A stretch of 64,000 nt of DNA from Pseudonocardiaceae bacterium (GTDB taxonomy: Bacteria > Actinomycetota > Actinomycetes > Mycobacteriales > Pseudonocardiaceae). Where the stretch lies: the NCBI GenBank assembly GCA_036378735.1, contig DASUVX010000031.1, forward strand, positions 9,856 to 73,855. Direction: 5' to 3'. Under the pieces are notes generated by a model, which did not search any database, was not told the origin of the DNA, and was given only the letters and a program-made list of their open reading frames with translations. The position numbers and the translations under genes are program-made. Shown piece after piece: positions 6,755 through 48,115 of the stretch; position 1 is the first letter of the stretch, and each line of letters begins with the position of its first letter.

Positions 6755-6791
6755 CACCAGCCTCCCTCCGCTCACACCCACCTCTTTCCCC

Positions 6792-6851
6792 CACACCCCG
6801 ACATGCCCCCCACACCCCTGACATGCCCCCCACACCCCCGACATGGAGCCA
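6792..6851. repeat. Three tandem ~20-bp units (cacacccc[g/t]gacatgcccccc), each repeating the left tip of the adjacent palindromic element
   Basis: Read directly at 6792-6851. The last unit continues into palindrome copy 1. Confidence 0.7.
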
Positions 6852-6902
6852 TATCGGGGTCATCGCGTACGCGCTTACCCCGATATGGCTCCATGTCGGG
6901 GT
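6835..6902. repeat. Palindromic element, copy 1 (26-nt arms, 16-nt spacer)
   Basis: Left arm CCCCCGACATGGAGCCATATCGGGGT (6835-6860), spacer catcgcgtacgcgctt, right arm ACCCCGATATGGCTCCATGTCGGGGT (6877-6902). 25 of 26 positions are complementary. Confidence 0.9.
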
Positions 6903-7045
6903 AAGCGGACTCGGTGCCGCCAGGTCTCCGCCCGGACCAGATTCCTGGCGCCGGGGAAGGTGCGTCAGGGCTGGGCCGTCCGTGTTGCTGGGCGTTTTAG
7001 GTATCCGCGGGATGCAGCTCCGGACGGAGACCTCGCGTCACCGGG

Positions 7046-7477
7046 TCACATCACCCCGGGCAGCACCTCCTCCTGCGCCTGGGCGTAGGACTCCTCGTGC
7101 TCCTCCAGGTAGCGCTGCCAGGCGGCGCTGTCCCAGATCTCCAAACGGTTGATCGCGCCGATCACCGCGCAGTCCTTGGTCAGCCCGGCGTAGCGGCGCA
7201 GCTCCGCGGCGATCGCGATCCGGCCCTGCCCGTCCGGGCGCTGTTCGTCGGTGCCGGCGAACAGGTAACGCTGGTAAGCCCGAACCGCCTCATTGGTGAA
7301 CGGCGCCTGCGCCACCTTGCGGGCCATCTGCTCGAACTCGGCACGGGGAAAGACATAGAGGCAGTGGTCCTGTCCCTTGGTGACCATCAACCCCCCTGCG
7401 AGCGCGTCGCGGAACTTTGCCGGCAGCGTCAACCGCCCCTTGTCGTCGAGCCGGGGTGTGTGCGTGCCCAGGAACAC
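7046..7477 (-). CDS. mraZ: Division/cell wall cluster transcriptional regulator MraZ
   Basis: N-terminus [22 protein letters not shown] and a second SpoVT/AbrB-like half ([13 protein letters not shown]). GTG 7477 lies 9 nt after the SD GGAGAGG. GTG 7483 is the alternative start. Confidence 0.9.
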
Positions 7478-7525
7478 GGCCACCCGCCTCTCCGCATCCG
7501 GCGGACCGGTCGTGAAGCACCCTTA

Positions 7526-13144: not shown

Positions 13145-14470
13145 CTAGCCGATCTCGTTACCCGATTCAGGGGAGAGCTGGGATCGCCCGCCACCGGCGG
13201 GCCCGGGAGTATCCAGCAGCGTCGCCGGCCGTACGGCGGCGCTGCCGAACCGTGACCGAGCAGCATCTGCGGCACGTTCGGCGTCCGACCAGTGCGCGTG
13301 CATTCCCGCGCCGTCTGCGCCATCGAAGGTGAGCTGCTCAGCCACCGCGCCACGGCTCAACTGGTCAATCCGCACGCCCAACAACCGGACCAGCATTCCG
13401 GGGGGTAGGTGTGCGTCCAACAACTCGGCGGCCACTGTGTAGACCGTATGTGTCGAGTCCGTCGGATCGGCCAGTGTGCGCGACCGGCCGATGGTGGTGA
13501 AGTCGGGATGGCGGATCTTCAGCGCAATGGTGCGGCCCCGCAGGCCGCGGCGGCGTAACGCGGCCGTGGCCCGGTCGACCAGCCGCAGCAGCTCGCGCCG
13601 CAAGGCCGTCCGATCAGCTTCGTCGCGGGCGAAGGTCTGCTCTGCTCCCACCGACTTCTCCGGCAGGTTCGGCACTACCCGCCGGTCGTCCCGGCCGTTG
13701 GCGAGCTCGTGCAGGTGATGGGCGCTGGCGGCCCCCACGGCGCGCCGCAACGCGGGCAGCGGCATGCTCGCCACGTCGGCCACCGTAGTGCACCCCAGCC
13801 GGCGCAGCACTTGCGCGGTGCGCTGGCCGACACCCCACAACGCCGACAGGGGCAGCGGGTGCAGGAACTCCAGGACACCGTCGGCGGGCACTACCAGCAG
13901 TCCATCCGGTTTGGACAGCCCGGAGGCGAGCTTGGCGAGGAACTTGCTCGGCGCCACGCCCACCGAGCAGGTCACCCGGTGAGCGTCATAGACCTGCCCG
14001 CGAATCCATTCCCCGATCCTGGCTGGGGTCATGCCCAACCTGCGCACCGACCCGCCGACGTCGAGGAAGGCCTCGTCCAGGCTCAGCGGCTCGACCAGTG
14101 GGGTGATCTCATGGAACAGCGCCATGACGCCCTGCGAAACCTCGGCATAGCGCGGGAAATGCGGCGGCACGAACTCCGCTTGCGGGCACAGCCGGCGGGC
14201 ATGGGCCACCGGCATCGCCGAGCGGACCCCGAACGCGCGAGCCTGGTAACTCGCCGAGAGCACGACGCCGCGATCTCCGGTGGGACTGCCACCCGCTACG
14301 ACCACGGGGCGCCCGGCCAGCTCAGGGTGTTGGCGGATTTCGACGGACGCGTAGAAGGCATCCATGTCGATATGCAGCACAGGGCAGCCGGTGTCGTTCC
14401 GCTGGGCCCGGGTGCGGGTGTCCCGCTGGGCCCGGGTGCCGGACCGCGGCAGATCGGCACTACGTCCCAA
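13145..14470 (-). CDS. dinB: DNA polymerase IV (Y-family)
   Basis: Motif HIDMDAFYASVE plus the Y-family palm and little-finger layout. TTG 14470 sits just after the SD GGAGGGG. GTG 14380 (VLHIDMD) is the alternative start. Confidence 0.88.
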   Translation of the reverse strand: MGRSADLPRSGTRAQRDTRTRAQRNDTGCPVLHIDMDAFYASVEIRQHPELAGRPVVVAGGSPTGDRGVVLSASYQARAFGVRSAMPVAHARRLCPQAEFVPPHFPRYAEVSQGVMALFHEITPLVEPLSLDEAFLDVGGSVRRLGMTPARIGEWIRGQVYDAHRVTCSVGVAPSKFLAKLASGLSKPDGLLVVPADGVLEFLHPLPLSALWGVGQRTAQVLRRLGCTTVADVASMPLPALRRAVGAASAHHLHELANGRDDRRVVPNLPEKSVGAEQTFARDEADRTALRRELLRLVDRATAALRRRGLRGRTIALKIRHPDFTTIGRSRTLADPTDSTHTVYTVAAELLDAHLPPGMLVRLLGVRIDQLSRGAVAEQLTFDGADGAGMHAHWSDAERAADAARSRFGSAAVRPATLLDTPGPAGGGRSQLSPESGNEIG

Positions 14471-15336: not shown

Positions 15337-16152
15337 GTGCGAACCGTGGCCGTGCTCAGCCTGAAAGGCGGGGTAGGTAAGACCTCCCTCGTACTTGGGT
15401 TGGCCGGGGCCGCCTTGGTGCGGAACATCCGGACGTTGGTCGTAGATCTCGACCCGCAGGGCAACTGCACCGCCACCCTGGATCCCGACACCACCAAGTG
15501 CACCGTGGCCGATGTGCTGGCCGACCCGAAACGTTCGGTGCTCAGCGAGGCGATCGCGCCCAGCGCATGGGGCGCGAGCCTGGATGTGTTGGTCGGCGGG
15601 GAGCAGACCGAGGAGCAGAACCGGCCGGATCCCAGCCGTACCGGCCTGCGGCGCCTGGACCGCGCGCTGTCCCAGCTGGACACGATCACCGACAATCCGC
15701 CGTACCGGCTGGTACTCCTGGACTGCCCGCCCTCGCTCGGCCAGCTGACCCGTTCGGCGCTGGTGGCCGCAGACCGGGCGTTGCTGATCACCGAACCCAC
15801 CATCTATGCCGTCGCGGGCGTGCAGCGCGCCTTCGAGGCCGTGCAGGCCGAACGGGAGCACAACCCTGACCTGCAACCGCTCGGCGTGGTAGTCAACCGG
15901 GTCCGCAGGTGGTCCAGCGAGCATCATTTCCGCATCAACGAACTGCGGGAAATCTTCGGGCCGCTGGTACTGCCCACCGTGCTACCGGACCGTTCGGCGG
16001 TACAGCAGGCTCAGGGCGCCGGACTACCGATTCAGCGCTGGGGCACTCCGGGGGCTCGGGAAGTTGCGGTCGCCATCGATTTGCTCCTGGCCCGGATGCT
16101 GCGCACCAGCCAGCTGCGCCGCCGCACCCACACCGACCCGCCCCAGACCTAA
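15337..16152 (+). CDS. Orphan ParA/MinD-family ATPase
   Basis: Deviant Walker A LKGGVGKTS, Walker B LVLLDCPPS, GTG start. No parB or parS is evident nearby. Confidence 0.8.
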   Translation: MRTVAVLSLKGGVGKTSLVLGLAGAALVRNIRTLVVDLDPQGNCTATLDPDTTKCTVADVLADPKRSVLSEAIAPSAWGASLDVLVGGEQTEEQNRPDPSRTGLRRLDRALSQLDTITDNPPYRLVLLDCPPSLGQLTRSALVAADRALLITEPTIYAVAGVQRAFEAVQAEREHNPDLQPLGVVVNRVRRWSSEHHFRINELREIFGPLVLPTVLPDRSAVQQAQGAGLPIQRWGTPGAREVAVAIDLLLARMLRTSQLRRRTHTDPPQT

Positions 16153-16174
16153 GCGGACGCCCCCTCCCACCGCG

Positions 16175-16210
16175 CGGTGTGTCGTGCTCCCGTGCCCGGT
16201 GTGTCGTGCT
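16175..16210. repeat. 22-bp tandem repeat, locus A (cggtgtgtcgtgctcccgtgcc plus a partial second unit)
   Basis: It shares the 15-mer GTGCCCGGTGTGTCG and the 22-bp period with locus B at 24285-24338. Confidence 0.6.
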
Positions 16211-16229
16211 TATCGGATCGCGCAGGACC

Positions 16230-16256
16230 TGTCACAGCCAAAGCCGCAATCTCGTC
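16230..16256 (+). promoter_or_regulatory. ECF41-type promoter TGTCACA-N16-CGTC upstream of doxX
   Basis: TGTCACA (16230-16236), then exactly 16 nt, then CGTC (16253-16256), about 50 nt upstream of the doxX ATG. It matches the promoter signature described for ECF41 sigma factors, recalled from memory. Confidence 0.65.
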
Positions 16257-16305
16257 TCCTGCACAGCATTCGACCGCGCGAGCCCAATCTCGAGGAGTAG
16301 CGCCG

Positions 16306-16674
16306 ATGAATACCGCAGTATGGATCTGTCAGGCCGTCCTGGCAGCACTTTTCCTGGCATCCGGGGCTGCGAAGATCAGCATGTCCCGGGATCGATTGCT
16401 GGCGACCGGCCAAACGGGGATCGCGCCGTTTCCCATGCCTGTGGTACGCGCGACGGCTGCTGCTGAGCTGCTCGCGGCCGCTGGCTTGATTGTTCCATGG
16501 GCAAGCGGTGTCCTACCGATGGTGACACCGCTTGCGGCAGTGGGATTGGCCGCCGTGATGGTCGGCGCGGCGTGCGCTCACTTACACCTGCATGAGCGGC
16601 TCACCGCTGGGGCGAACATGGTAATCCTGTCGGTGTGCGTCTTCGTCGCGGTGGCTCGTTTTACCGGGCACTGA
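16306..16674 (+). CDS. DoxX-family membrane protein
   Basis: Four TM helices (MNTAVWICQAVLAALFLASGAAKI...). ATG 16306 is preceded by GAGGAG. The upstream part of the track ORF is non-coding. Confidence 0.8.
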   Translation: MNTAVWICQAVLAALFLASGAAKISMSRDRLLATGQTGIAPFPMPVVRATAAAELLAAAGLIVPWASGVLPMVTPLAAVGLAAVMVGAACAHLHLHERLTAGANMVILSVCVFVAVARFTGH

Positions 16675-16707
16675 TCACGGGTTGGAACAGGAAACTGAGG
16701 ATCCCCG

Positions 16708-17616
16708 GTGAACCCGGTCGATATTGAGAGCCTCTACCGAGAACTGCGGCCCTACGGCTTCGCGATTGCCTACCGGATGCTCGGCAGCGTCAGCGAAGCT
16801 GAGGACGTGGTGCAGGAAGCATTCGTACGGCTGAGCCACACAAGAACTGATGAGATCGATAATCCAAAGGCTTACCTTGCAACCATCACCACCCGCCTGG
16901 CAATCGATGAGCTCCGCTCCGCTCGCAGCCAACGTGAGACCTACTTCGGTCCTTGGTTACCAGAGCCTCTGGTCAACGAGCACGCCGCAGACGTCGCCGA
17001 TGCCGCTGAAGCCGCGGAGTCATTGACCATGGCGTTTCTCGTCGTGCTCGAAAAGCTCTCACCCGTCGAACGGGCTGTCTTTCTGATGCGGGAAGTATTC
17101 GACTACGACTACGACGACATCGCTCGAATCGTCGGGAAGAGCCAGGCGAACTGCCGCCAACTCGCCAGGAGAGCCCGGCATCGAATCGAACGCGGCAAGC
17201 CTCGCTTCGAAGTCTCTCGCGAGGAACAGGCCGAACTGGCCGGGCGGTTTTTCGCCGCCTGCCAGGACGGCGACATGAATGAACTCGTTGCGTTGCTCGC
17301 CAGCAACGCGGCCTTCTATGGTGACGGCGGCAGCAAGGGCACCGGCGTGCCACATCCCGTCTACGGCCGCGACCAGGTGGCGAGGCTGCTGCTCGGGCTA
17401 TTTCGCTTCGCTCACCGGCTCGGTGTGCAACTGCGGGCCGCGGAGGTCAACGGCCAGCCGGGTGCTCGGTGTCTCGATCCGGCCGGCGGCCTGATCAACG
17501 TCCTCAGCCTCGACATCGCCGACGGCGCAGTCCAAACCGTCCGCTCGATTGTGAACCCTGACAAACTCCGCCATCTCGGGCCACTGTCACCGATCGGCCG
17601 CCGCAGCGGTGTGTGA
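16708..17616 (+). CDS. sigJ: ECF sigma factor, group ECF41 (SigJ-like) with a fused C-terminal SnoaL-like regulatory domain
   Basis: Sigma-2 and sigma-4 regions plus the three ECF41 signature motifs WLPEP, DGGSKG (DGGGK-like) and NPDKL. About 300 aa. No anti-sigma gene is adjacent. Confidence 0.88.
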   Translation: MNPVDIESLYRELRPYGFAIAYRMLGSVSEAEDVVQEAFVRLSHTRTDEIDNPKAYLATITTRLAIDELRSARSQRETYFGPWLPEPLVNEHAADVADAAEAAESLTMAFLVVLEKLSPVERAVFLMREVFDYDYDDIARIVGKSQANCRQLARRARHRIERGKPRFEVSREEQAELAGRFFAACQDGDMNELVALLASNAAFYGDGGSKGTGVPHPVYGRDQVARLLLGLFRFAHRLGVQLRAAEVNGQPGARCLDPAGGLINVLSLDIADGAVQTVRSIVNPDKLRHLGPLSPIGRRSGV

Positions 17617-18441
17617 TCAACCCTGCCCGGGCTGCGGCTGGCCGCGCGGGGGTATCGCCTGCTGCGTCGAGGCGGGTTGGGAAGCCGGCTCACCGGCAGT
17701 GACTTCACCGGCGATCGGCGCCCCACGGATGGAGGCGCGGATCTGCTCCAGCCGGGACCGGCCCGCCATGTCCAGCGTCGATTGCTGTACTTCCAGCATG
17801 CGGCCCTGCACCGAATTCTGGGCCAGCTCGGCGGCCCCGAGAGCATTGGCGTAGCGGCGCTCGATCTTGTCCCGTACCTCATCGAGAGACGGGGTATTAC
17901 CCGGCGCCGCCAACTCGGACATGGACCGCAGCGAGGCGGAGACCTGCTCTTGCATCTTCGCCTGCTCGAGCTGAGAAAGCAGCTTGGTGCGCTCTGCGAT
18001 CTTCTGCTGCAGCACCATCGCGTTGCGCTCGACAGCCTGCTTGGCCTGGGTTGCGGCCTGCAAGGACTGGTCATGTAGCGTCTTGAGATCCTCAACTGAC
18101 TGCTCGGCGGTGACCAGCTGGGTGGCGAAGGACTCCGCCGCCTGCTCGTACTGCTGCGCCTTGGCCTGGTCGCCTCGACCCCGAGCATCGTCGGCGAGCA
18201 CCAGCGCTTGGCGGGCTGACGATTGCAGCTTCTCGATCTCTCCTAGCTGCCGGCTGAGCTTCACTTCCAGTTGCCGCTGGTTGCCGATGACGGCGGCGGC
18301 TTGCTGGGACAGTGCCTGGTGCTGGCGCTGCGCCTCCTCGACGGCCTGCTGGATCTGCACCTTGGGATCGGCGTACTCGTCGATCTTGGACGAGAACGAC
18401 GCCATCAGGTACTTCCAAGCCTTCACAAACGGGTTGGCCAT
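17617..18441 (-). CDS. pspA: PspA/IM30-family protein
   Basis: [38 protein letters not shown] followed by a long coiled coil. ATG 18441 follows GGAG. It lies downstream of clgR, as in mycobacteria. Confidence 0.88.
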
Positions 18442-18621
18442 CTCCTGCGCTGCCTCTCTTCGTGACCAATCGGGCCCAGCGTCACGCGCCCGGCCACGGC
18501 CCCACCCAGCCAAGCACATCAAACCGGCCGTGTGCTGCCTCCATGGTGTCAGGTGCGCGATAGCGCTTCCACCAACCCCAGGGAGAACCGGGGATATCCC
18601 TGACCTCCGGCACTGTCGAGT

Positions 18622-18903
18622 TCAGGCCGCCACCAGCTCGGCCGCAAGGGTATCGGGCACCTCGGGCAGGTACACCGGACCGAGATCGTCGGCCACCCGC
18701 CGCAATAGCTCGTCGAGGGGCAGGTCAAGTGCGTCACAGATCGATGCGAGTAGCTCGCTGGACGGCTCCTTGCGGCCCCGCTCAATCTCAGAGAGATACC
18801 CCAGGCTCACTCTGGCGACCCTGGACACCTCCCGCAGCGTCCGGTGCTGCGAGGTCCGCGTCCGGCGCAACCGGTCGCCGATGGCCTCCCGCAGCAACAT
18901 CAT
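18622..18903 (-). CDS. clgR: ClgR-like XRE-family transcriptional regulator
   Basis: 93 aa with [35 protein letters not shown], in the clgR-pspA and pgsA neighbourhood. Confidence 0.85.
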
Positions 18904-18990
18904 CGCGTTCCCTCCAGGGTGTCGGCTGGGCCTACTCGAGACCAGCTTGCTTGACCCCTACCGTACTCACCAGTCCGCCGCCCCGGCGTC

Positions 18991-19004
18991 CGCCGTGGGC
19001 GAAC
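18991..19004 (-). promoter_or_regulatory. Candidate ClgR operator GTTCGC-ccacg-GCG
   Basis: The minus strand reads GTTCGCCCACGGCG, an exact match to the GTTCGC-N5-GCG ClgR motif reported for Streptomyces (recalled from memory). It lies about 90-100 nt upstream of the clgR start. Confidence 0.5.
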
Positions 19005-19046
19005 GACATATCGGGTTCATCCGCCCCCGTCGAGCTGCTGACGCAG

Positions 19047-19640
19047 TTACGGCAATGCGACGGCTCGGCGACCGGACGCGCGTAGTCGTAGCGCACGCAC
19101 GACGTAGTCGACGCCGGTGACGACGGTGAGCGCTACGGCGATGCCCATAACCGTCCAACGCAGCGGGTAAGCAGGCAACGGAAGCGGTAGCACGTACAGC
19201 CCGATTGCCACCGCCTGTGTGAATGCCTTGATCTTCCCGCCGCGGCTGGCCGGGATCACTCCATACCGCAGCACCCACAATCGCAACCCAGTCACGGCCA
19301 GCTCCCGGACCGCGATCAGCAGGGTGACCCACCACGCCAACTCGCCCAGCAGGCTCAGGCCCACCAGTGCGGACCCGATCAGTGCCTTATCGGCGATGGG
19401 ATCGGCGATCGTGCCGAACTTGGTAACCTGCCCGCGCCGTCGCGCCAGGTCCCCGTCGAACCGGTCGGTGAGCGAGGCGATGCCCAGTATCACGGCTGCG
19501 GTCACCCGCCACGCAGGATCGGCGCCGTCCCTGATGAACAGGGCAACCACGAAAACCGGTACCAGCACCAGCCGTGACATGGTCAGCAGGTTGGCCAGGT
19601 TCCACAGCGAGACCCTGGTCGGCTGCGGCGGCGGGCTCAC
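19047..19640 (-). CDS. pgsA: CDP-diacylglycerol--glycerol-3-phosphate 3-phosphatidyltransferase
   Basis: CDP-alcohol phosphatidyltransferase motif [31 protein letters not shown] overlap with the rimO stop. Confidence 0.88.
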
Positions 19641-21085
19641 CGTTCGCCGCCGGCTGGGGCGATCAGCTCCATCGGCTCGACGACCAGATCCACTCCCTCA
19701 GCGGCGATCACCCGGCAGCGCACCAGATCGCCAAGGACGAACGAGCCCTCGTCGGTGAGCAGGCACTCGCCGTCCACCTCCGGGCCCTGGTGCTCGGCGC
19801 GCCCGACCGTCTGGGCGCCGTCAGTACCACCGACGAGACCGTCGACGAGGACGTCGACGGTATCCCCGACCCGCTCCTCGGCGCGCTGGGCGGTGAGCTG
19901 CTCGACCAACCCGCTGATCCGGGCGACGCGCTCGGCGATGGAATCCTCGCTGTGCTGGCCCGGCAAGCCAGCGGCCTCGGTGCCGTCCTCGTCGGAGTAG
20001 CCGAAGACACCGACGGCATCGAGCCGGGCCTCGACGAGGAAACGTTCCAGCTCAGCCAAGTCGGCCTCGGTCTCCCCGGGGAATCCGACGATCACGTTGC
20101 TGCGCACTCCCGCCAGCGGCGCAGGCCGGCGGATCTGGTTCAGCAAGGCCAGGAAGGCTTCGCGCGAACCGAACCGGCGCATCCGTCGCAGCATCGGCTC
20201 GCTGGCGTGCTGGAAGGACAGGTCGAAATAGGCTGCCACCCCTGCAGTGCCGGCGATCGTGGTCACCAGCGTGGGACGGGTCTCGGCCGGCTGCAGGTAG
20301 GAAACCCGGATACGCAGGATGCCGGGAACGGCGGCCAGCCTGCGCAGCAGCTCCTCCAAGGCGCCGGGGCGGCCCAGGTCCTTGCCGTAGGACGTGGAGT
20401 TCTCGCTGACCAGCACCAGCTCCCGCACACCCGTCCCGGCCAGCCACGCCGCCTCGGCCAGCACCTCGTCGACTGGACGCGAGACGAACGCACCGCGGAA
20501 GGTGGGTATGGCGCAGAACGCGCAACGCCGGTCACAACCCGACGCGATCTTCAGTGGGGCGACCGGTGAGTTATCCAAGCGTCGGCGGGGCACGCGAGGA
20601 CCCCAGCCGTGGCCGGGTAGCGCGGGCCCGGCCGCCAAGGCGGCGGGCCGGGAAGCTGGGGTGATCGGAAGCAGGGTGCGGCGATCCACCGGGTGGTGCG
20701 CCGGCACGGCCCGACCGGCCAGTACGTCCCGCAGCCGATCACCCAACTCGGGATAGGCGTCGAAACCCAGGACCGCGTCGGCTTCGGGGAGGCTGGCGGC
20801 CAGTTCGGCGCCGTAGCGCTCGGCCAGGCAACCCACCGCGACGACTTTGGCGCCGGTGTCCGCGGCGGCGAGCAGGGTGTCGATGGAGTCCTTCTTGGCC
20901 GCCGCGACGAAACCGCAGGTGTTGACCACCACCACGTCTGCCGACCCGAGATCGGCGCTGTCGGCGTCCACCAGCTCCCAACCGTCTTCGTTTAACCGGC
21001 CGGCCAGTTCTTCGGAGTCGACCTCGTTGCGCGCGCACCCCAAGGTCAGCAGCGCAGCGCGGGGAGACTTCGGTGGGGTGGGCAC
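19637..21085 (-). CDS. rimO: Ribosomal protein S12 methylthiotransferase RimO (radical SAM MTTase)
   Basis: N-terminal [12 protein letters not shown], radical [11 protein letters not shown], and a C-terminal TRAM-like domain. Confidence 0.85.
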
Positions 21086-30713: not shown

Positions 30714-31938
30714 CCGGCCGGGCGCCGGCGTTGCGGCTGATCACCACGCCCAGCGCCGACACCAGATCACCGCGCTCGCCCGGCGCGATCCCGTCGAGCT
30801 CGAGCCACTCGGCCATCTCCCGCAGGGCCTTGGCAAGCTCGGCAACCACTCTCGGCCTACCGGCAATCGCCGGCTCGGCGAAGGCACCCGGTACCCGCAG
30901 CAGGCCGGCGGCCCGATCGGCCTTGAGATCGACCCGCGCAACCAGCTGCCCGTCCAGCAGGAACGGCAATACGTAGTAGCCGTGGCCACGCCGGTGTTGC
31001 GGAACATAGATCTCGATCCGGTAGCGGAAGCCGAACAGCCGCTGGATGCGAGCCCGGTCCCAGATCAACGGGTCGAACGGGCCCACCAGCGCCGCGCCGG
31101 TGATCCGCCGCGGCGTGCGGGCCTCGTGGTGCAGGTAGGCCGGTGCTCGCCAGCCCTCGACGAGCACCGGCTCCAGCACTCCGGCGTCCACCAGTTCCGC
31201 GACCGCCTGCCTGCTGCGCTCTGGTCGAAGCCGGTAGTAGTCACGAAGGTCGGGCTCGGTGGCGACGCCCAGCGCGGCGCCGGCCCGGGCGACCAGCTCG
31301 CGGGCGCCATCGTCGGCGCTGACGCGGCGGCCCAGCACGTCGGCCGGTAATACTCGTTCCGGCAGGTCATATAGCCGCTCGAAGCCGCGTCTGGTGCCGG
31401 TGGTGAGCTCACCGATGCCGAAAAGCCACTCGCAGATCCGTTTCGTGTCGGTGCGGTTCCACCACGATCCCGGCGTTGACCGCGCTACCCCACCGATCTC
31501 GCGCTCCAGGGTGGCAGCCCCCACCGGGCCGTGCTCTTTTACCGTATCCAGCACGGCCGAAACAAGCTCGGGCTCGCGAGCTGCCAGCGCGCCGTACTTT
31601 TGCCACCAGCCAGGCTTCTTGGCCCCCGAACGCAACAGCGGCCAGTCCCGAACTGGGATCAGACTCGCCTCGTGGCCCCAGTACTCCGCCAGCGGGCGGG
31701 GACGGCGTACCGGGTACGCCCACGCGGCGGCGTCGAGCAGCTGCCTCGGGTACGGACCCAGCCGGCTGAATACCGGCAGGTAGTGCGCCCGGACCAGTAC
31801 CGACACCGAATCCAACTGCAGCAGCCGGATTCGATCCAACACCCGCATAAGATGCCGCCGGGTCACCGAGCCGGCCGGCCGCGGCTCGGCGAAGCCCTGT
31901 GCCGCCAGGGCCGTCCGCCGCGCGAGATCTATCCCCAT
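30694..31938 (-). CDS. YcaQ/AlkZ-like winged-helix DNA glycosylase family protein
   Basis: [21 protein letters not shown] ... [24 protein letters not shown] ... [17 protein letters not shown]. The start is set after the palindromic element (ATG 31938, alternative GTG 31947). Confidence 0.78.
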
Positions 31939-31986
31939 CGTCCGCACAGCACCCGATGTTGCCACCCACCCCCGACAGTCTCCCCT

Positions 31987-32054
31987 CCCCCGACATGGAG
32001 ACATATCGGGGTTACGGGCCTTCCCCGGACCCCGATATGTCTCCATGTCGGTGT
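31987..32054. repeat. Palindromic element, copy 2
   Basis: Left arm CCCCCGACATGGAGACATATCGGGGT, spacer tacgggccttccccgg (16 nt), right arm ACCCCGATATGTCTCCATGTCGGTGT. One arm mismatch. Confidence 0.9.
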
Positions 32055-32106
32055 TGCCGGGGGCGTCGACGGGGCCGGTGGGTTCGAGTTGGGGGCGGGG
32101 CATACG

Positions 32107-32673
32107 GTGCATGGCGTGGGCGTGGCTGGTGTGCGCAGTGCGACTGTGCAGGATGCGCCGACGCTGGCGGAGCTGCACCGGGTGACCTGGCGGACTGCCT
32201 ATGCCGAGCTGTTGCCGCCCGGAACGCTCGACGAGCTGGATACACCGCAGCTGCAGCAAGCCTGGTCCGCCACCATCAGGGGCGGCGCTACGGTACTGAT
32301 CGCGACCGAAGGTGCCGATCCGGTCGGGTTCGTCGTGGCCGGGCCAGCACCCGAGGACGAGGTAGCCGCCGCCGATGGCACGATGCCCACCGACGCGGCG
32401 CACACCGTGCTGGTGAGCACCCTGCTGGTCGAACCGAGGTGGGGGCGCCGAGGCCACGGCGGGCGGCTGCTTGCCGCAGTCGCGGGCCTTTTGCGTGATG
32501 CCGGCGCCACCCGTGGCATCGCCTGGGTGCCTGCGGAGGATCCGGCCTCGCTGAGCTTTTACCGGCGCGCCGGCTGGGCGCCGGATGGCACCGTACGCAC
32601 GCTCGACGCCAATGGACGCGCCCTTCGCGAACTACGCCTAACCGGGCCTCTGGACCTGGAACTCACTCAGTGA
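32107..32673 (+). CDS. GNAT-family N-acetyltransferase
   Basis: VRSATVQDAPTLAELHRVTW ... LLVEPRWGRRGHGGRLL ... FYRRAGW. The start is uncertain (GTG 32107, 32116, 32122 or 32131). Confidence 0.7.
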   Translation: MHGVGVAGVRSATVQDAPTLAELHRVTWRTAYAELLPPGTLDELDTPQLQQAWSATIRGGATVLIATEGADPVGFVVAGPAPEDEVAAADGTMPTDAAHTVLVSTLLVEPRWGRRGHGGRLLAAVAGLLRDAGATRGIAWVPAEDPASLSFYRRAGWAPDGTVRTLDANGRALRELRLTGPLDLELTQ

Positions 32674-37098: not shown

Positions 37099-37165
37099 CG
37101 TTCTCCTCCTCGCGACACGAGCCAGGCGGTGACACCATCGCGTGGGAGTGAGGACGATAGGCCGG

Positions 37166-37208
37166 TCTTCGATCGAAGCTCCCGGAGCACGTCGTGTGCT
37201 CTCGGGAG
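37166..37208 (-). promoter_or_regulatory. pnp leader structures: a 12-nt palindrome plus a 13-bp bulged hairpin
   Basis: CTTCGATCGAAG at 37166-37177. GCTCCCGGAGCAC (37177-37189) pairs with GTGCTC[T]CGGGAGC (37195-37208) around a 5-nt loop, 70-110 nt upstream of the pnp ATG. Confidence 0.5.
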
Positions 37209-37288
37209 CCACTACCGAGGACCGGCGGACGACGATCCCGACGACGGTGACATGGCGGCTCGTGCCGCGACGTGTGGTTGTGTATCAA

Positions 37289-39352: not shown

Positions 39353-40231
39353 TCACTCACCGGCAGGGCGCAGCACCAGGATCGGACGGGCCTGGTCGTC
39401 GCGCTCGGCGAGCAGCGCGACGGCGCCGCCATCGGAGTCGATCGCGGCGTACGTCCCGGTCAACCCGCAGGCCGGCAACGACCCACCATGAGCCAGTACC
39501 CGGGCCTGCCGGCCGTCGACGGCGCGGTGCGGAAACAGGGCAGTCACCACCTCGTCCAGCCCTGCTGACAATCCAGGCGCGCTGGCCAGTTCGTCGAGGG
39601 TACGGGCAACATCCAGGCCGTACGGGCCGACCCGGGTACGGCGCAGGGCGGTCAGGTGCCCCCCGACGCCCAATGTGGCGCCCAGGTCCCTGGCCAGCGC
39701 GCGGACGTAGGTGCCGCCGCTGCACTCCACCAGCACGTCGAGGTCGGTCACGGTCTGGCCGCGGCGCAGCGCGAGAAGCTCCAACCGGGACACGGTCACC
39801 GGACGGGCGGTCAGCAGCACCTGCGCACCCGCGCGAGCCAGCGCGTAGGCGCGCTTGCCGCCGATTTTGATGGCGCTGACCCTGCTGGGCACCTGCTCGA
39901 TGGTTCCGCGCAGACCCGCGAGCGCCGCGCGGATCTGCGGCTCGCTCACCGCGGACGCGTCGGCGCCGCCGGTGCGCTCTCCCTCGGCATCGTCGGTGGT
40001 GGTGGACATGCCCAGCCGCACCGTGCCGCGGTAAACCTTGGGTTCCAGCGGGAGATGTCCGAGCAGCTTGGTGGCGCGCTGCACCCCGCAGACAAGCACG
40101 CCGGTGGCCATCGGGTCCAGGGTGCCGGCGTGTCCGATCCGGCGGATGCGCAGCAGCCGGCGCAGCCGGGAGACCACATCATGTGACGTCATCCCAGCCG
40201 GCTTATCCACCACAACCAGCCCACCCCCCAC
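39353..40231 (-). CDS. truB: tRNA pseudouridine(55) synthase
   Basis: GLVVVDKPAGMTSHDVV and the catalytic GHAGTLDP. GTG 40231 follows a GAGG SD. The upstream 138 codons of the track ORF read through palindrome copy 3 and into nrnA. Confidence 0.88.
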   Translation of the reverse strand: MGGGLVVVDKPAGMTSHDVVSRLRRLLRIRRIGHAGTLDPMATGVLVCGVQRATKLLGHLPLEPKVYRGTVRLGMSTTTDDAEGERTGGADASAVSEPQIRAALAGLRGTIEQVPSRVSAIKIGGKRAYALARAGAQVLLTARPVTVSRLELLALRRGQTVTDLDVLVECSGGTYVRALARDLGATLGVGGHLTALRRTRVGPYGLDVARTLDELASAPGLSAGLDEVVTALFPHRAVDGRQARVLAHGGSLPACGLTGTYAAIDSDGGAVALLAERDDQARPILVLRPAGE

Positions 40232-40240
40232 GCCAACCTC

Positions 40241-40308
40241 ACCCCGACATGGAGACATATCGGCGTTATCTGACCCCTCTGGACCCCGATATGTCTCCAT
40301 GTCGGGGT
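40241..40308. repeat. Palindromic element, copy 3
   Basis: Left arm ACCCCGACATGGAGACATATCGGCGT, spacer tatctgacccctctgg (16 nt), right arm ACCCCGATATGTCTCCATGTCGGGGT. It fills the nrnA-truB spacer. Confidence 0.9.
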
Positions 40309-41300
40309 TACAGCGCGGGGGCGCGGTGTAGGGCGGTGCGTAGCGCATCGAGGATGTCGCCGGGAGTGCCGTCGGTGGTGAGGCCGGCGGCCAGACGGTG
40401 GCCACCACCGCCAAGCTCAGCTGCGGCGGCGGAGACATCGATGTGCTGCTTGGCGCGCAGCGATACCGACCACCGATCCGGGCCGACCTCCTTGAGCACC
40501 GCGGCGACCTCGGCCTCGGACGTGGTCCGCACGAGATCCACCACGCTCTCGATCTCCTCGCTGCGCAGGCCCGCCGCGTCGGCCAGCCGGACGGTGGTGT
40601 GCACCAGTCCCAGACCCTGCGCCGATGCGGGCTCGAGCTGCGCACGGCCGAGCACTGTTGCCAGCATGGGTAACCAGCCGAACGGATGGGTGTCGAGCAG
40701 CTCGCGGGTGAGTGCTTGGGTGTCGACTCCCGCAGCCAGCAACCGGGCGGCAGTCGCGTGGGTGCGCGGGTCCGCCCGCCGGAAGCAGCTGGTGTCGGTC
40801 ACCAGGCCGGCGTAGAGGCAGCGCGCGATCGGCTCGTCCAGCACTACTTCCAAGGTGTCGAGCAACTGGAGAACGAGCACTGCGGTGGCGTCAGCGCCGG
40901 CATCTACCAGATGGTGGGTACCGAATCGGTCGTTGGTGGCGTGGTGGTCGATCACCAGCACGGCGCCGGCGGTATCGATCCGGTCGGCAAGGCAGCCCAG
41001 CCGGCTTCGACTCGCGGTGTCCAGAGTGACCAACACCTCCGGCCGGGCAGGTACCTGGTCCGGCGGCACGATAAGACCGGCTACGTCCAGCCCACGCAGC
41101 GACTCCGGCGTCTGCGCCGGCGCGCCGAAGCTCACCCGCACCGTCGCGCCCCGCCGGGACAGTGCCAGTCCGAGAGCCAGCGCGCTGCCCAGCGCGTCGG
41201 CGTCCGGCTGCACGTGCGCGATGAGGGTGACGTCCTGGGCCGCCGCGAGCAGCGCGGCTGCCTCGTAGATAGCGTCGGGTGCGATCACACTGTTACTCAC
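40308..41300 (-). CDS. nrnA: DHH/DHHA1 phosphoesterase NrnA (nanoRNase / pAp phosphatase, CnpB-like)
   Basis: DHH motifs [15 protein letters not shown] and IDHHATN, and the DHHA1 motif GGGH. Confidence 0.85.
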
Positions 41301-41728
41301 TCACGACTCCGGTACGGATCGGGGTCACCAGCGGGCGACGCGTCCGCCGCGATGCGGGCCACCTCGGCGTCGGCGTCGTGCGCTCGGGCCAGCAACTCGT
41401 CGATGCGCCGCGCCCCGTCCGGAAGGTCGTCGCAGCGGAAGGTGAGGGTAGGGGTGAACCGGACGCCTGTCGCGCGGCCGACCAGCGATCGCAGTACTCC
41501 GGTTGCGCTGGCCAGCGCGGCCGCCGCCGCGGCGGTGTCCGGTGGAGCATCGACGGTCTCGCCGAGCACCGTGTAGTAGACCGTCGCGTCCCGCAAATCC
41601 GCGGTGACTCGCGCGTCGGTGATCGTCACCATCGTCAACCGGGGATCCTTGACCTCGTGCTCCAGCCCGGATGCGACGACCTGGGCGATCCGTTTGGCGA
41701 GCCGCCGGGCCCGTGCTTGGTCGGCCAT
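41297..41728 (-). CDS. rbfA: Ribosome-binding factor A
   Basis: [48 protein letters not shown] 41728 follows GAGGAG. Confidence 0.88.
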
Positions 41729-41810
41729 CGCAGCGTTCTCCTCAGCAGTCTGTCGAATTCGTTCGTGCGGCTTTGCGGGACGCGTCGAGCGCTCGCCGCA
41801 GCTGCCCACG

Positions 41811-42110
41811 CTAGTCGTCGTCTGGGCCCAGCATCCGGTGCCTGGCGGCCAGCAACTCCAGCTCGGGCCGTCCGGCCACCAAGCGCTCGCACGCCTCGAG
41901 CACTGCACGCACGTGGCCGCCATCGGTGGCCACGGCGGCCACGCCGATCAGCGCCCGGCGGTGTAAGTCTGCGTGACCGGCCTCGGCCGCCGCGACGTCG
42001 AAGCGTCGCCGCAGTTCCGCGATCACCGGCCGGACGAGTGAGCGCTTGTGCTTCAACGAATGCACATCGCCGAACACGATGTCCAGCTCCAGAGCACCGA
42101 CGTACACCAC
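41811..42110 (-). CDS. DUF503 (YlxP-like) protein
   Basis: 99 aa, [24 protein letters not shown]. Conserved position between infB and rbfA. Confidence 0.8.
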
Positions 42111-42163
42111 TTATCACCACTGGGTTGGTAGCTAGGTTGGTAGCTGTTGACGACCACCCTCAC

Positions 42164-42198
42164 GGGGGTTGGTGGCCCTTGAACGGCCACCAACCCCC
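42164..42198 (-). terminator. Perfect 14-bp stem hairpin (GGGGGTTGGTGGCC / GGCCACCAACCCCC, 7-nt loop) 8 nt after the infB stop, with no U-tract
   Basis: Read directly. It could be an attenuator, a processing site or a stabiliser rather than a full terminator, because DUF503, rbfA and further genes follow on the same strand. Confidence 0.4.
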
Positions 42199-42206
42199 GC
42201 GAGGGG

Positions 42207-45206
42207 TCAGGTGCGGGGCTTTTCCCGCAGCTCGTAGGTCTCTACCTCGTCGCCGACCCGCAGGTCGTGGTAGTTCGACAGGGTCAGGCCGCATTCGAAG
42301 CCCTCCCGAACCGACGAGGCGTCATCCTTGAACCGTCGCAGCGACGACACCGTAAGGTCCTCGCGGACCACCACGTTGTCCCGAAGCAGCCGGGCCTTGG
42401 CGTTGCGCCGGATCTCCCCTGACGTGACCATGCAGCCGGCGATGGTGCCGACCTTGGAGGACCGGAACACCTCGCGGACCTCGGCGCGGCCCAGCGACAC
42501 CTCCTCGTAGATCGGTTTGAGCATGCCCTTGAGGGCCTGCTCGATGTCTTCGATCGCCTGGTAGATCACCGAGTAGTAGCGAATCTCAACACCCTCGCGG
42601 TTGGCCAGTGCGGTGGCCTTACCGTCGGCCCGGACGTTGAAGCCGAGCACGATGGTGTTGTCCGCGATGGCTAGGTTGATATCGCTTTCGGTGATACCTC
42701 CGACGCCGCGGGAGATGACCCGCAGCTCCACCTCGTCGCCGACGTCGATCTTCAGCAGGGCATCTTCCAGCGCCTCCACCGTGCCGGCGTTGTCGCCCTT
42801 GAGGATCAGGTTGAGCTCGCTGGTCTCCTTTAGCGCCTGGTCCAGGTCCTCCAAGCTGACCCGGCGGCGGCGGGAGGCGAGGTCGGCGTTGCGCTCCCTG
42901 GTGCGCCTGCGGTCGGCGATCTGCCGGGCGATGCGGTCCTCGTCGACGACGAGGAAGTTATCGCCTGCACCGGGTACCGAGGTGAACCCGATGACCTGCA
43001 CCGGCCGTGAGGGCAGCGCCTCGATGACGTCATCGCCGTGCTCGTCGACCATGCGCCGGACCCGGCCATACGCGTCGCCGGCGACCACCGAGTCGCCAAC
43101 CCGCAGCGTGCCGCGCTGCACCAGCACGGTAGCCACCGGCCCGCGACCGCGGTCCAGATGCGCCTCGATCGCCACCCCCTGAGCCTCCATCTCCGGGTTG
43201 GCCCGCAAGTCCAGGGACGCATCTGCGGTGAGCAGGATCGCCTCCAGCAGCGCGTCGATGTTGGTGCCCTCCTTGGCGGAGATGTCGACGAACATGGTGT
43301 CGCCGCCGTACTCCTCGGGAACCAGCCCGTACTCGGTGAGCTGGCCGCGGATCCGGGTCGGGTCCGCGCCCGCCTTGTCGATCTTGTTCACCGCGACCAC
43401 GATCGGCACGCCGGCCGCCTTCGCGTGGTTGATCGCCTCCACCGTCTGCGGCATGACGCCGTCGTCGGCGGCGACCACCAGCACCGCAATGTCGGTCGAC
43501 CGGGCACCACGGGCTCGCATCGCGGTGAACGCCTCGTGACCGGGAGTGTCGATGAAGGTGATCAGCCGCTCCACGCCTTCGAGCTCGGTGGCGACCTGGT
43601 AGGCACCGATGTGCTGGGTGATCCCGCCGGCCTCACCACCCATCACGTTGGCCTTGCGGATGGTGTCCAGCAGGCGGGTCTTGCCGTGGTCCACGTGACC
43701 CATCACGGTGACCACTGGCGGCCGGATCTCGAGGTCCTCCTCGCCACCCGAGTCCTCGCCGTAGGACAGGTCGAACGACTCGAGCAGCTCGCGGTCCTCG
43801 TCCTCGGGACTGACGACCTGGATCCGGTAGTTCATCTCCTGGCCGAGCAGCTCGAGTACGTCGTCTGACACCGATTGGGTGGCCGTCACCATCTCGCCGA
43901 GGTGGAACAACGCCTGCACCAGCGCGGCCGGATTGGCGTCGATCTTTTCCGCGAAGTCGGTGAGCGAGGAGCCGCGACGTAGCCGGACGATCTCGCCGCT
44001 ACCGCGCGGGAGCCGCACCCCGCCGACCGACGGGGCCTGCATGTTGTCGAACTCCTGGCGCTTCTGCCGCTTGGACTTGCGACCCTTGCGCGCGGGGCCA
44101 CCAGGCCGGCCGAAAGCACCCGCCGCGCCGCCACGGCCACGACCACCGGCACCGGGGCGCGCCGGGCCACCGCGGAAACCACCGCCGGCCGGAGCGCCGG
44201 CACCCGCGGGACCAGCAGGAGCCGCACCGCCACGGAAACCGCCCCCACCGCCACGGCTACCGGACCCGCCAGGTCCACCGCGGCCACCACCGGGACTGCT
44301 AGGACCACCGCGACCACCCTCACCGGTAGCGGGGCGCCCCGGCCGGCTGGGCATCGCGCCTGGGCTCGGTGGACGCGGCGGCATCATGCCGGGATTCGGC
44401 CGCGGTCCGCCGCTACCGGGCGAGCCGGTGCGGCCGGTGCTCGGGCGGTTGGCGCCACCCGGACGCGGCGGCATGTTGCTCGGCCCGGCTGGACTCGCCG
44501 GGGCACCGGGGCGCTGTCCCGATGAACGCGGCGGCGCGGTACTGCCGACACCGAACGGGTTGTTGCCAACCCGCGGCGAGCGTGGACCTGGTTTGGGCAA
44601 CCGGGGACGGGGCGTTCCAGGGGCACCGCCTTCGTCAGGCCGGGGAACCGAGCGCTGCTCGGTCGCCGGGCCCGGTGACGCCACCCGATGCTCTGCCGCA
44701 GGACGGTGCGGCTCGGTGGGCGCGGGCGGGCGGACCGCCGGCTCACCGACAGCAGGACGGTCCGGGGCGCTGCGCCGCTCGACCGGGGCCGGACGCTGCG
44801 GAACTCCTGCGGGAGAGACCCGTGGCGGGACTACCGGAGCTTCGCTACCGGACCCACTACCGGACCCGCTAGTCGGCCCAGTTCCAGACCCGCTGTCAGG
44901 CACAGGTTGCGGCAGGCGACCGGGCGAAGGGACCGGACCAGGCTTGGCGGCGGCTCCACCGACGGCGGGAAAAGTGCCGGTGGCGGCACCACCGCTGGCG
45001 GGGCCACTGGCTGGTGCGCCGTTGGCGTAAGGCGCCTTGGCGGTGTCGGAAGGGAACGAGTCCCGAAGCTTGCGGGCGACCGGTGCCTCCACCGTTGAGG
45101 AGGCAGACTTCACATACTCACCAAGATCGGCGAGTTTCTTGAGTACATCTTTACTGGTGACGCCGAGCTCTTTCGCGAGCTCGTGCACACGGGCCTTGCC
45201 TGCCAC
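42207..45206 (-). CDS. infB: Translation initiation factor IF-2
   Basis: [16 protein letters not shown]-terminus, a long Gly/Pro/Arg-rich linker, and a G-domain GHVDHGKT ... DTPGH ... NKID. GTG 45206 follows GAGGAG. Confidence 0.93.
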
Positions 45207-45400
45207 TGCTCTCCTCACTGGTGGAGCCGGCGGCAATCCCGCTCGACCCCGTTACTAGTGCATGTCCATCGCTGTCAGAGCTTCACGACTGCGGGTACAT
45301 TTCGGAATCGACCTGCTCTCTGCGTTGACCACGCGCCGGGGCGGTCCCGGGCGGGGTATGTCCCCGGCGCACCGAGGACCTACTACCGTCTCCGAACAGC

Positions 45401-45715
45401 TCACGTGACAAAAGCGCGCACCGCGGCGGTGTCGAGCTCACCCGGGGAGCGCAGCGCCCGCGGGAAGGCCCGGCGCCGCTCGGCCAGACGCAGACATCCG
45501 AGTTCGGGATGCACCCACGCGCCCCGACCAGGATGCCGTCGCCGCGGGTCGGGGACCAGGATCCCCTCCACCGCCACCACACGCAGCAATCCGGAAGCCG
45601 CCGCCCTGGTCCGGCACCCCACGCAGGTCCGGACTGGCTCGGCGGGCCGCTCGTGGCGACCGCGCCGGATTTCATCCGGGCAGGCGTGGACCGTCCCCCG
45701 ACGGCGCGCCATCAT
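45401..45715 (-). CDS. ylxR: YlxR-family (DUF448) RNA-binding protein
   Basis: RTCVGCR ... GRGAWVH motif, lying between nusA and infB. Confidence 0.8.
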   Translation of the reverse strand: MMARRRGTVHACPDEIRRGRHERPAEPVRTCVGCRTRAAASGLLRVVAVEGILVPDPRRRHPGRGAWVHPELGCLRLAERRRAFPRALRSPGELDTAAVRAFVT

Positions 45716-45719
45716 GATT

Positions 45720-46778: not shown

Positions 46779-47299
46779 CGTTCCTCCAAATCATGCCGTC
46801 GTGCGCCGCCGAGGGCCGCGAGCTCGTCGGCCGGCGGTGGGCGGAATTCCACTTCCACCACCGCGCGACGCAGCTCCGTGTACCGCACTCGGCGTAGGGC
46901 TCCCGACGTCAGCAGTGTGACTCCGTCGTCGTCGCAGTCGCCAATCCGGCCGATCAGCTCGCCACCGGCTACCAGGGAAGCGCGGACCATCCGTAGCCGG
47001 TTTCGTCGCCAATGCCGGGGCGCAGTGAGCGGCCGATCCACCCCCGGCGAAGTCACCTCGAGGTGGTAAGGCGCGGCGATGAGCTTGTCGTGCTGGTCCA
47101 GCGCCAGCGATACCGCGCGGCTTACCGCGGCGATGTCGTCGAGTCCGACACCGGTATCCGAATCGATGACCACCCGGATCAACCGGCGCTGGCCGGCGCG
47201 CACTTCCTCCAAGTTTTCGAGCTCGAACCCGGTGCCGGCCACCGCGTCGCGAACCACCGACTCGATTGCAGAGTCGGGATTCGCTGATTGCGCGCTCAC
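46775..47299 (-). CDS. rimP: Ribosome maturation factor RimP
   Basis: [12 protein letters not shown] motif. GTG 47299 follows AGGAGG. The upstream 215 codons of the track ORF were dropped. Confidence 0.88.
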
Positions 47300-47516
47300 C
47301 GTGGCCTCCTGGGTTCGACGTCCTGGTTTTCTCGTTTGTCTGAAGTGCTGGTTGGTGAGGTCATGCTTGCTGAAGATGTGGCGATGCGGGCGGCGCCGGC
47401 GCGGCGCGCCCCGGTCGGGATCACCTAGGGTATCGCGTTTGCGCGCCCGGCCCGCGCCAAGTGGATCACGGTGTACGAGCCTGCGGCAAAACAGCGGCCT
47501 GGCAAGATGGTCGACC

Positions 47517-48020: not shown

Positions 48021-48044
48021 CGCGCCATCACCCTTCCGCGCCCC

Positions 48045-48112: not shown

Positions 48113-48115
48113 GGT

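Follow-up and report, generated by a model that had tools for sequence, protein, structure and literature searches.

Palindromic elements in the mraZ-rsmH and nusA-pnp regions

The stretch of DNA analysed here (the window; 64,000 nucleotides from a bacterium of the Pseudonocardiaceae) has a G+C content of about 70%, and its genes are those of the mraZ-rsmH region and the nusA-infB-rbfA-nrnA-truB-rpsO-pnp region of an actinobacterium. Four copies of a palindromic element of 68 bp, each made of two inverted 26-nt arms around a short spacer, are located in the window at the positions given in a first-pass annotation of the same sequence:

Copy 1, 6835-6902, no strand assigned: left arm 6835-6860, spacer 6861-6876, right arm 6877-6902
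Arm-boundary repeats by copy 1, 6785-6834, plus strand: outer end of the left arm in partial tandem, CCCCCCACACCCC[C/T]GACATG, about 2.5 units
Copy 2, 31987-32054, no strand assigned: divergent region between an alkZ-like gene (minus strand) and a GNAT gene (plus strand)
Copy 3, 40241-40308, no strand assigned: fills the gap between nrnA and truB
Copy 4, 48045-48112, no strand assigned: between gene X (47079-48020, plus strand) and the DUF4439 gene (48116-48550, plus strand)

When the window was searched with the 26-nt consensus at up to three mismatches, seven arms were found, compared with none in 100 dinucleotide shuffles, and the eighth (the right arm of copy 4) was recovered by a search with the 22-nt core, confirming that each copy carries two inverted arms. 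Scanning the window for further copies or solo arms beyond the four revealed none. The ends of the arms are self-complementary (CCCCGA...TCGGGG), as had been described, and the folding suggested as a check gave a single stable hairpin per copy, with energies of -51 to -69 kcal/mol and z values of -5.5 to -10. The arms of copy 1 are of the GGAGCC/GGCTCC variant, a compensated change, and the stem of copy 4 contains one A.G mismatch (GGAGAC versus GGCTCC), both of which agree with the earlier description. The spacer length of 16 nt reported for copies 1 to 3 was also correct, but the spacer of copy 4, previously given as 17-18 nt, is likewise 16 nt when read in register (core offset 42). The spacer of copy 1 includes a palindrome, CGCGTACGCG, and a boundary repeat similar to that of copy 1 was also seen in L032.

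Three of the four copies had been placed between co-transcribed genes, and the flanking genes are indeed co-directional for copy 1 (mraZ, 7046-7483, and rsmH, 5765 to about 6753, both on the minus strand), copy 3 (nrnA/truB) and copy 4 (gene X/DUF4439), while copy 2 lies between the divergent alkZ and GNAT genes. Copy 3 overlaps the last base of the stop codon of nrnA (DHH/DHHA1; 40308-41300, minus strand) by 1 nt, leaves about 9 nt to the truB start (about 40232, minus strand), and holds in one arm an ATG that is in frame with the truB reading frame. Gene X and the DUF4439 gene overlap by 4 nt in relatives that do not have copy 4.

Distribution of the family

An exact-pattern scan of 185,579 species-representative genomes gave arm matches in at least 98 blocks of 8 kb. 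Among the matches listed, all blocks but one came from 27 uncultured MAGs, which are labelled as Pseudonocardiaceae, Pseudonocardiales, Actinomycetota or Mycobacteriales. The arm is thus abundant outside the window, which was one of the points on which the first-pass annotation had made its proposal depend. At least 14 blocks with an arm match belong to a single MAG, SMAG_U11247, whose 316-kb contig is 87-90% identical to the window. The sole cultured organism among the matches listed is Nocardia crassostreae (L074), with a lone arm that has two mismatches and no partner; this match is compatible with chance, since about 15-20 chance matches of the pattern are estimated for 596 Gb.

Searches of plasmid and phage collections with the consensus element gave no match, nor did a literature search for the arm sequence. 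In the window, only Actino-pnp (37161-37226) passed the Rfam gathering score, and a permissive Rfam search over copy 1 gave nothing significant. The first-pass annotation had likewise not recognised a named element, and the palindromes are a new, unnamed family of the REP-doublet type in an uncultured actinobacterial clade.

Anatomy of arms, doublets and spacers

In the 98 loci and the window, 195 arms were identified, which are arranged in 79 head-to-head doublets, 3 pairs in direct orientation, and 27 singlets. The core offset of the head-to-head doublets is nearly always 42 (53 copies), 41 (20) or 43 (3), with about 3-4 outliers at 38, 44 and 52, and all three direct-orientation pairs have an offset of 42. 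The opposite inverted configuration was never seen among the 195 arms. The arm itself is palindromic over 26 bp, imperfectly and with an asymmetric centre (ACCCCGAYATG-KMTC-CATRTCGGGGT). Its outer half-site usually reads GACATG and its inner half-site GATATG, and a conserved mismatch is found between them at positions 8/19, where 41 of 55 left arms have C.A and 44 of 55 right arms U.G. Pairing between the two arms is 94% Watson-Crick. In 55 aligned copies, changes on both sides were found at 9 stem pairs, a number matched by 1 of 500 shuffles, and several copies carry doubly or quadruply compensated changes, with the Y/R swap found in both arms of L011, L055 and L087. A hairpin or cruciform, whose stem measures about 26 bp, results when two units lie head to head at a distance of 15-17 nt. 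Among the singlets, L038, L042 and L088 consist of two outer half-sites and are long palindromes (GACATG-TCTC-CATGTC).

Spacers are 16 nt (53 copies), 15 nt (20) or 17 nt (3) long. They had been described as unrelated in sequence, and look so among the four copies of the window, but across the family (78 copies) they are more alike than shuffled sequences: 200 pairs are alike at 10 or more of 16 positions, compared with about 19 expected from shuffles. Weak motifs are found at the spacer ends (TAT/ATA) and in the centre (GGGGTC/GACCCC). Some non-orthologous pairs match at 13-14 positions, and two non-orthologous copies of one MAG, L039 and L051, have spacers identical at 14 of 15 bases. Such sharing between non-orthologous copies indicates that the doublet is copied as a unit and that its spacer then diverges fast. 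The spacer does not extend the stem, as its mirrored complementarity (1.78) was no higher than that in a swap control (1.92 +/- 0.13). Matches of 7-9 bases between the spacers of L014 and L080 and those of their orthologues are at most suggestive of spacer inversion, an observation confounded by the partly palindromic nature of the spacers.

Neither GTAG nor CGTC is present as a tetranucleotide at the end of the palindrome. The outer flank positions are unconserved, and the inner junction shows a weak T-n-A.

Orthologous sites and turnover

Eight syntenic stretches of 14-21 kb (L099-L101 and L103-L107) were obtained via homologues of NrnA, whose identity to the window protein is 86% in L103, 81% in L099 and L105, and 80% in L104. 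The closest relatives by NrnA identity carry elements, and L104 and the more distant genomes have none in these 14-21 kb. Orthologous sites were found filled, decayed or empty, which answers the earlier suggestion that empty sites be looked for:

Copy 2 site: present in the window and L099; no arm (up to four mismatches) in L100, L101 and L103-L107, where the result for L103-L105 is that of the arm search only, the alkZ-GNAT junction not having been read for decayed copies
Copy 3 site: present in the window, L078, L072 and L103; no arm in L099, L100, L101 and L104-L107
Copy 4 site: present in the window, L041, L014 and L099; decayed in L103 and L105; no arm in L100, L104 and L106

At the site of copy 1, the nearest relative (L063) has a solo right arm only, with no left arm, spacer or boundary repeats, and the window has about 70 nt extra relative to L063, the tandem partial boundary repeats included. 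Between orthologous pairs, the identity of the arms is 77-98% (90-98% outside one group), that of the spacers 38-88%, and that of the mostly coding flanks 73-94%. The arms are thus better conserved than spacer and flanks in most orthologous pairs, as a family of genuine elements had been expected to show, with the exception of one orthologous group in which arm conservation is no better than flank conservation. The peptides encoded by the arms, which had raised the possibility of real coding sequence, are not conserved in element-free homologues.

Taken with the shared spacers, these comparisons show that the doublet is copied as a unit and then persists or decays, leaving singlets as well as filled and empty orthologous sites. 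No excision or transposition event was observed directly.

Position behind stop codons

Copies accumulate right behind stop codons, above all between convergent genes. When the contexts of the elements were compared with the other intergenic regions of the same loci, convergent regions accounted for 33% versus 14%, and divergent regions for 6% versus 24% (p = 7e-4). The stop codon of a gene reading towards the element is usually located 0-20 nt before the arm. The first-pass annotation had considered all copies to be intergenic, which is not strictly so for copy 3 with its overlap of the nrnA stop codon, nor for copies elsewhere in the family, where at least 20 genes end inside an element and acquire C-terminal tails of the type ...PRHGDISG-stop or PDMETYRG. 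It was through peptides of this kind that the first-pass annotation had come upon the copies. The elements therefore account for spurious ORF extensions in MAG annotations, both PRHGDISG-type tails and starts inside arms.

The elements do not resemble intrinsic terminators, which combine a GC-rich hairpin with a U-tract: no T run is found 3' of the hairpins, whose right flanks are G-rich, and the elements were not reported by a terminator scan of 39800-48400.

A C-rich, G-poor signature in the flanks

The 75-100 nt on each side of the element are C-rich and G-poor when read towards the element. The GC skew is about -0.4 beside the arm and has disappeared at a distance of about 150 nt; the bias is independent of the orientation of the neighbouring gene and is also observed at singlets (mean -0.31). 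A skew of -0.25 or lower was found in 67% of the element flanks, compared with 5% of control gene ends (control mean -0.02). In the window, the flanks have the following GC skews, all read on the plus strand:

Copy 1, 6760-6834 (left side): -0.77
Copy 2, 31912-31986 and 32055-32129: -0.45 and +0.47
Copy 3, 40166-40240 and 40309-40383: -0.50 (C-rich) and +0.41 (G-rich)
Copy 4, 47970-48044 and 48113-48187: -0.43 and +0.50

The bias is located at synonymous sites. In the 22 genes that have their own stop codon before the arm, G3 was 0.14 and C3 was 0.67 over the last 25 codons, compared with 0.43 for both in the body of the same genes, and with 0.37 (G3) and 0.44 (C3) over the same terminal stretch in 390 control genes. 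For gene X, orthologues next to an intact copy had skews of -0.33 and -0.35, those next to a decayed copy -0.21 in both cases, and those that lack the element +0.02, -0.02 and +0.07. The nrnA genes that adjoin an element had -0.27 to -0.36, compared with 0 to -0.15 for the others. In both genes the sequence changes are synonymous (for example CTG to CTC and GCG to GCC), and the peptide tails are conserved.

Two other origins of the bias were rejected. It is not a general feature of gene ends, as it is absent at 281-385 control stops, nor does it represent inserted DNA that replaced the gene ends, because the tails of nrnA and gene X are orthologous to those in element-free genomes. The flanks also do not form an outer degenerate palindrome, with a mirrored pairing of 12.8 versus 12.6. 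In addition, folded native flanks formed 29.8 flank-to-flank pairs and swapped flanks 32.8; since native and swapped flanks pair equally, the complementarity of the two sides is compositional only. The RNA of the 80 nt upstream of the element has a C/G ratio of 2.16 and is much less structured than that of controls, with folding energies of -19.3 and -30.0 kcal/mol, respectively (p = 5e-35). G runs are frequent in the outward flanks, where a canonical G-quadruplex motif is enriched (13% versus 0.5%) but confined to a minority.

The flank signature, a G avoidance that is sharply local and symmetric, follows the presence, decay and absence of the element in orthologous genes, which is direct evidence that the repeat subjects its neighbours to nucleotide-level selection or to a strongly biased local process. 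Alternatively, the skew could result from G-rich read-through RNA prone to R-loops, from a need of the hairpin or cruciform at the DNA level, or from a local mutational bias. This synonymous-site excess of C over G is the more unusual part of the family and deserves follow-up.

A probable REP-doublet family and its possible mode of spread

REPINs, as described by Bertels and Rainey (PMC3337134), are inverted doublets of an imperfect palindromic REP in one preferred configuration set by the asymmetric centre, with discrete spacings, spacers that are never identical, and decaying singlets, of which the long palindromic ones arise by excision of the centre. The structure and dynamics of the family described here match those of REPINs, and for this reason the family was filed as REPIN-like. 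We consider it highly probable that the palindromes belong to the REP/REPIN-like repeats.

It is more doubtful whether they are mobilised by a RAYT-like enzyme. A cognate RAYT or TnpA had been suggested, and none was found in the approximately 0.9 Mb of sequence searched: phmmer with the E. coli RayT against all ORFs of at least 60 aa in the window and L001-L101 gave no match, and Pfam analysis of the genes bracketed by two elements and of the eight syntenic stretches gave no transposase. A tblastn search for RAYT on plasmids gave no actinobacterial match, and no actinobacterial REPIN-RAYT system was found in the papers searched. Furthermore, the GTAG or CGTC tag that is absent here is typical of RAYT-associated REPs (PMC3733652). 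The family thus raises the question of which enzyme maintains it.

The explanation that we favour, with a probability of roughly 0.7, is that of a lineage-specific, non-autonomous REP-doublet family. Under this explanation, the element would spread as a single-strand hairpin intermediate on which a single-copy enzyme, HUH/Y1 (RAYT-like) or other, acts in trans, and retained copies would act on RNA as bidirectional 3'-end modules. Such a module would consist of an unstructured, C-rich and G-poor (rut-like) tract of about 80 nt and, after it, a very stable hairpin that lacks a U-tract and may pause or block RNA polymerase and exonucleases, thereby favouring Rho-type termination and 3'-end protection. 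The avoidance of G at the synonymous sites of the neighbours would then have been selected in place, after insertion. For the REP/BIME sequences of E. coli, the reported effects are attenuation of transcription, greater stability of the mRNA upstream and, near a stop codon, an influence on translation.

The functional part of this explanation, namely termination or another 3'-end function with selected flanks, is tentative and, in our estimate, somewhat short of an even chance; we infer it from the position behind stop codons and from a stable hairpin, free of a U-tract, that comes after a rut-like flank. In RhoTermPredict, a terminator is represented by a rut site with a pause hairpin after it. 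The sequence leading up to the element (80 nt) has more C than G and is weakly structured over the length (about 60-80 nt) of a rut site, and C-rich, G-poor, weakly structured RNA is the published hallmark of such sites (PMC13613805). Actinobacteria also rank highest for predicted Rho dependence (PMC13613805). Three points count against Rho. Published RUT predictions peak downstream, not upstream, of 3' stem-loops (PMC13613805). The rut-like stretch is translated, and ribosomes should hinder Rho there. In addition, the mismatches show no sense-strand bias of G.U over A.C (4 versus 6; 31 versus 31 overall), and so give no indication that RNA, and not DNA, is the form under selection.

A more far-reaching version of the same idea is that an actinobacterial REPIN-like element is a self-installing bidirectional termination module that synonymously recodes some 25 codons in each of the adjoining genes (G3 from 0.43 to 0.14) into a rut-like tract with more C than G, with the bias relaxing when the element decays, and whose mover may be an enzyme outside the known RAYT groups. 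We regard this version as speculative and its probability as rather low. If it were true, a mobile repeat would be visibly shaping the codon usage of adjacent genes.

Alternative explanations

The elements could instead be primarily host terminator or RNA-stability elements, that is, a selected bidirectional 3'-end signal that spreads only rarely by recombination or gene conversion. The location right behind stop codons with enrichment between convergent genes would be expected of such a signal, as would the synonymous-site bias that goes with the element, the C-rich and unstructured upstream RNA, and the retention of the arms at orthologous sites although the flanking genes are only about 75-90% identical. 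However, convergence could not explain 26-nt arms that are nearly identical in at least 195 instances from 27 species, and two copies in one genome have almost the same spacer. Copy 2 lies in a divergent promoter region and copy 4 disrupts translationally coupled genes, and in many genes the original stop codon is gone and translation ends within the element. Furthermore, decayed copies and empty sites imply that individual copies are dispensable, and the hairpin is without a U-tract. We consider a primarily host-derived signal rather unlikely.

As a second alternative, a DNA-binding protein (for instance a nucleoid-associated protein or a global regulator) could use the element as a double operator and would recognise four CCCCGAYATG half-sites in 26-bp units 42 bp (four helical turns) apart. 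This could account for a centre-to-centre distance that is strictly 41-43 bp despite the variable spacer sequence and for the three direct-orientation pairs that keep the 42-bp offset, and it is compatible with the solo units and with mismatches that have no RNA strand bias. However, near-perfect conservation at 22 of 26 positions in hundreds of sites is not typical of regulator sites, and the copies avoid divergent, promoter-bearing regions (6% versus 24%) and are placed on stop codons. Compensated changes that keep the arms complementary to each other, filled and empty orthologous sites with some copies decaying, and the lack of an identified candidate binding protein also argue against it, and an operator is thus improbable.

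A classical TIR-type MITE, namely an insertion sequence that has an internal deletion and is mobilised by a DDE transposase, would be small, would have two terminal inverted repeats (here of 26 bp) and would be dispersed with presence/absence polymorphism, but is very improbable because no target-site duplication of 2-8 nt was found at any offset, the arms are themselves palindromic and persist as solo arms, the spacers are unconserved whereas an interior derived from an insertion sequence would be conserved, and no insertion sequence with these ends was found in the approximately 0.9 Mb examined, in plasmids or in phages. Owing to the lack of a target-site duplication, only the first half of the earlier designation as a REP/MITE-like dispersed element was retained: the family is REP-like, with a REP-doublet architecture, rather than a MITE of the TIR type.

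Comparison with known systems

In TIR-type MITEs and other palindromic repeats of bacteria (Correia/CREE, ERIC/IRU, BOX and RUP), the interior is conserved, and target-site duplications or ends like those of an IS are present. The family described here resembles them in being small, non-coding, dispersed, hairpin-forming and often co-transcribed, and differs in its lack of a duplication, its unconserved interior and its palindromic arms.

With Rho-dependent terminators and with actinobacterial stem-loops that have no U-tract, the family shares a weakly structured, C-rich and G-poor tract of about 80 nt upstream of a stable hairpin that has no U-tract, at gene ends. In contrast to these, the hairpin is a repeated, near-identical 68-bp sequence instead of a locus-specific stem, and the rut-like tract occurs on either side of it, within translated sequence. 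Through the flank signature, REP-like elements can be connected with Rho-type termination in a concrete way that is open to testing, in a phylum whose terminators without a U-tract are poorly understood.

The closest resemblance is to the REPIN/RAYT systems (GI-GIII of P. fluorescens SBW25; REP/BIME of E. coli), with which the family shares a short imperfect palindrome with an asymmetric centre. Compared with REPINs, there are several differences: the GI REPIN is drawn as 89 bp (PMC3337134), whereas the element here is very compact (68 bp with a 16-nt spacer), and the passages on REPINs consulted make no mention of a synonymous-site bias of C over G extending for 75-100 nt into the flanks. The spacer here does not lengthen the hairpin, no RAYT was found in the approximately 0.9 Mb searched, and there is no GTAG/CGTC tag. 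The further likenesses are inverted doublets in one preferred configuration with discrete inter-unit spacings, an unconserved spacer with no two copies sharing one exactly, singlets including long palindromic ones, an extragenic location at the 3' ends of genes without target-site duplication, and copies that persist vertically at orthologous sites and also decay (PMC3337134). The host also differs, being a high-GC actinobacterial clade, while the papers searched describe proteobacterial systems only, and a structurally equivalent family in uncultured Pseudonocardiaceae would extend REPIN biology to high-GC Gram-positive bacteria.

Possible rearrangements of arms and spacers

In three arm pairs from other genomes (L043 1030, L045 2037 and L060 2230), the arms lie in direct orientation at the same 42-nt offset as in the inverted doublets, and these pairs differ from normal doublets mainly in an inverted 4-nt centre (GAGA versus TCTC). 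Template switching inside the arm's mini-hairpin could produce this difference. In the window (6785-6834) and in L032 (about 790-830), stretches of 15-20 nt that include the left arm's outer end are duplicated in tandem, a pattern suggestive of slippage at the hairpin during replication. Furthermore, in two orthologous sets the spacer of one member matched the rest better when reverse-complemented, with AGCGGGG as an example of a common string:

L014 2669-2736, candidate spacer inversion relative to window 48045-48112 (copy 4)
L080 3566-3633, candidate spacer inversion relative to L018, L050 and L056

The sequence comparison hints that the spacer can invert between the arms, but such short and partly palindromic spacers make this weak evidence.

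Genes and RNA motifs around the elements

Gene annotations of the metagenome-assembled genomes reach into the element in L103 (11019-11086), a syntenic stretch of a relative, in L056, L080 and others. In L103, the annotated C-terminus of NrnA, ...SPRHGDISGSRGL*, comes from such an extension, and some called genes in element-bearing assemblies begin at ATG codons within the arms. Rather than conserved protein sequence, these element-derived C-terminal tails and start sites probably represent by-products of the insertion.

At the nrnA-truB junction, extra small ORFs occupy the place of copy 3 in two relatives (L099 11029-11364 and L104 10968-11878), and this junction seems to be an insertion hotspot.

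A single Rfam family, Actino-pnp, scored above threshold in the whole window, and a weak, partial match was seen beside copy 1:

37161-37226, minus strand, leader RNA of the Actino-pnp family, upstream of pnp (68.4 bits; gathering score 47.7)
6933-6978, minus strand, mraW RNA motif (RF01746) between mraZ and copy 1 (25.8 bits; gathering score 50; E 0.0034)

Copy 1 is placed between the weak mraW-motif match and rsmH, and its right flank is the only flank in the window that lacks the G-rich bias (GC skew +0.09).

As separate observations, the G+C content falls to 0.66 at 16001-20000 compared with about 0.70 elsewhere in the window, and the infB stop codon (42207) is followed directly by a near-perfect palindrome unrelated to the element. 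This palindrome (42157-42205), whose 24-nt arms are 92% complementary and 1 nt apart, has the look of a U-tract-less hairpin specific to that locus.

The insertion point of copy 2 is immediately upstream of a motif, CTGTCGG-N(8-10)-GGCA(G/A/C)CATC...GTGCAGA, which is conserved across genomes just upstream of the start of the AlkZ-like DNA glycosylase gene:

about 31938-31985, minus strand, motif in the window
L099 about 19820-19868, conserved counterpart
L100 about 20910-20954, conserved counterpart
L101 about 14022-14068, conserved counterpart

This motif resembles the actinobacterial RecA-independent (PafBC-type) DNA-damage promoter, TGTCGGTG-N8-TAnnnT.
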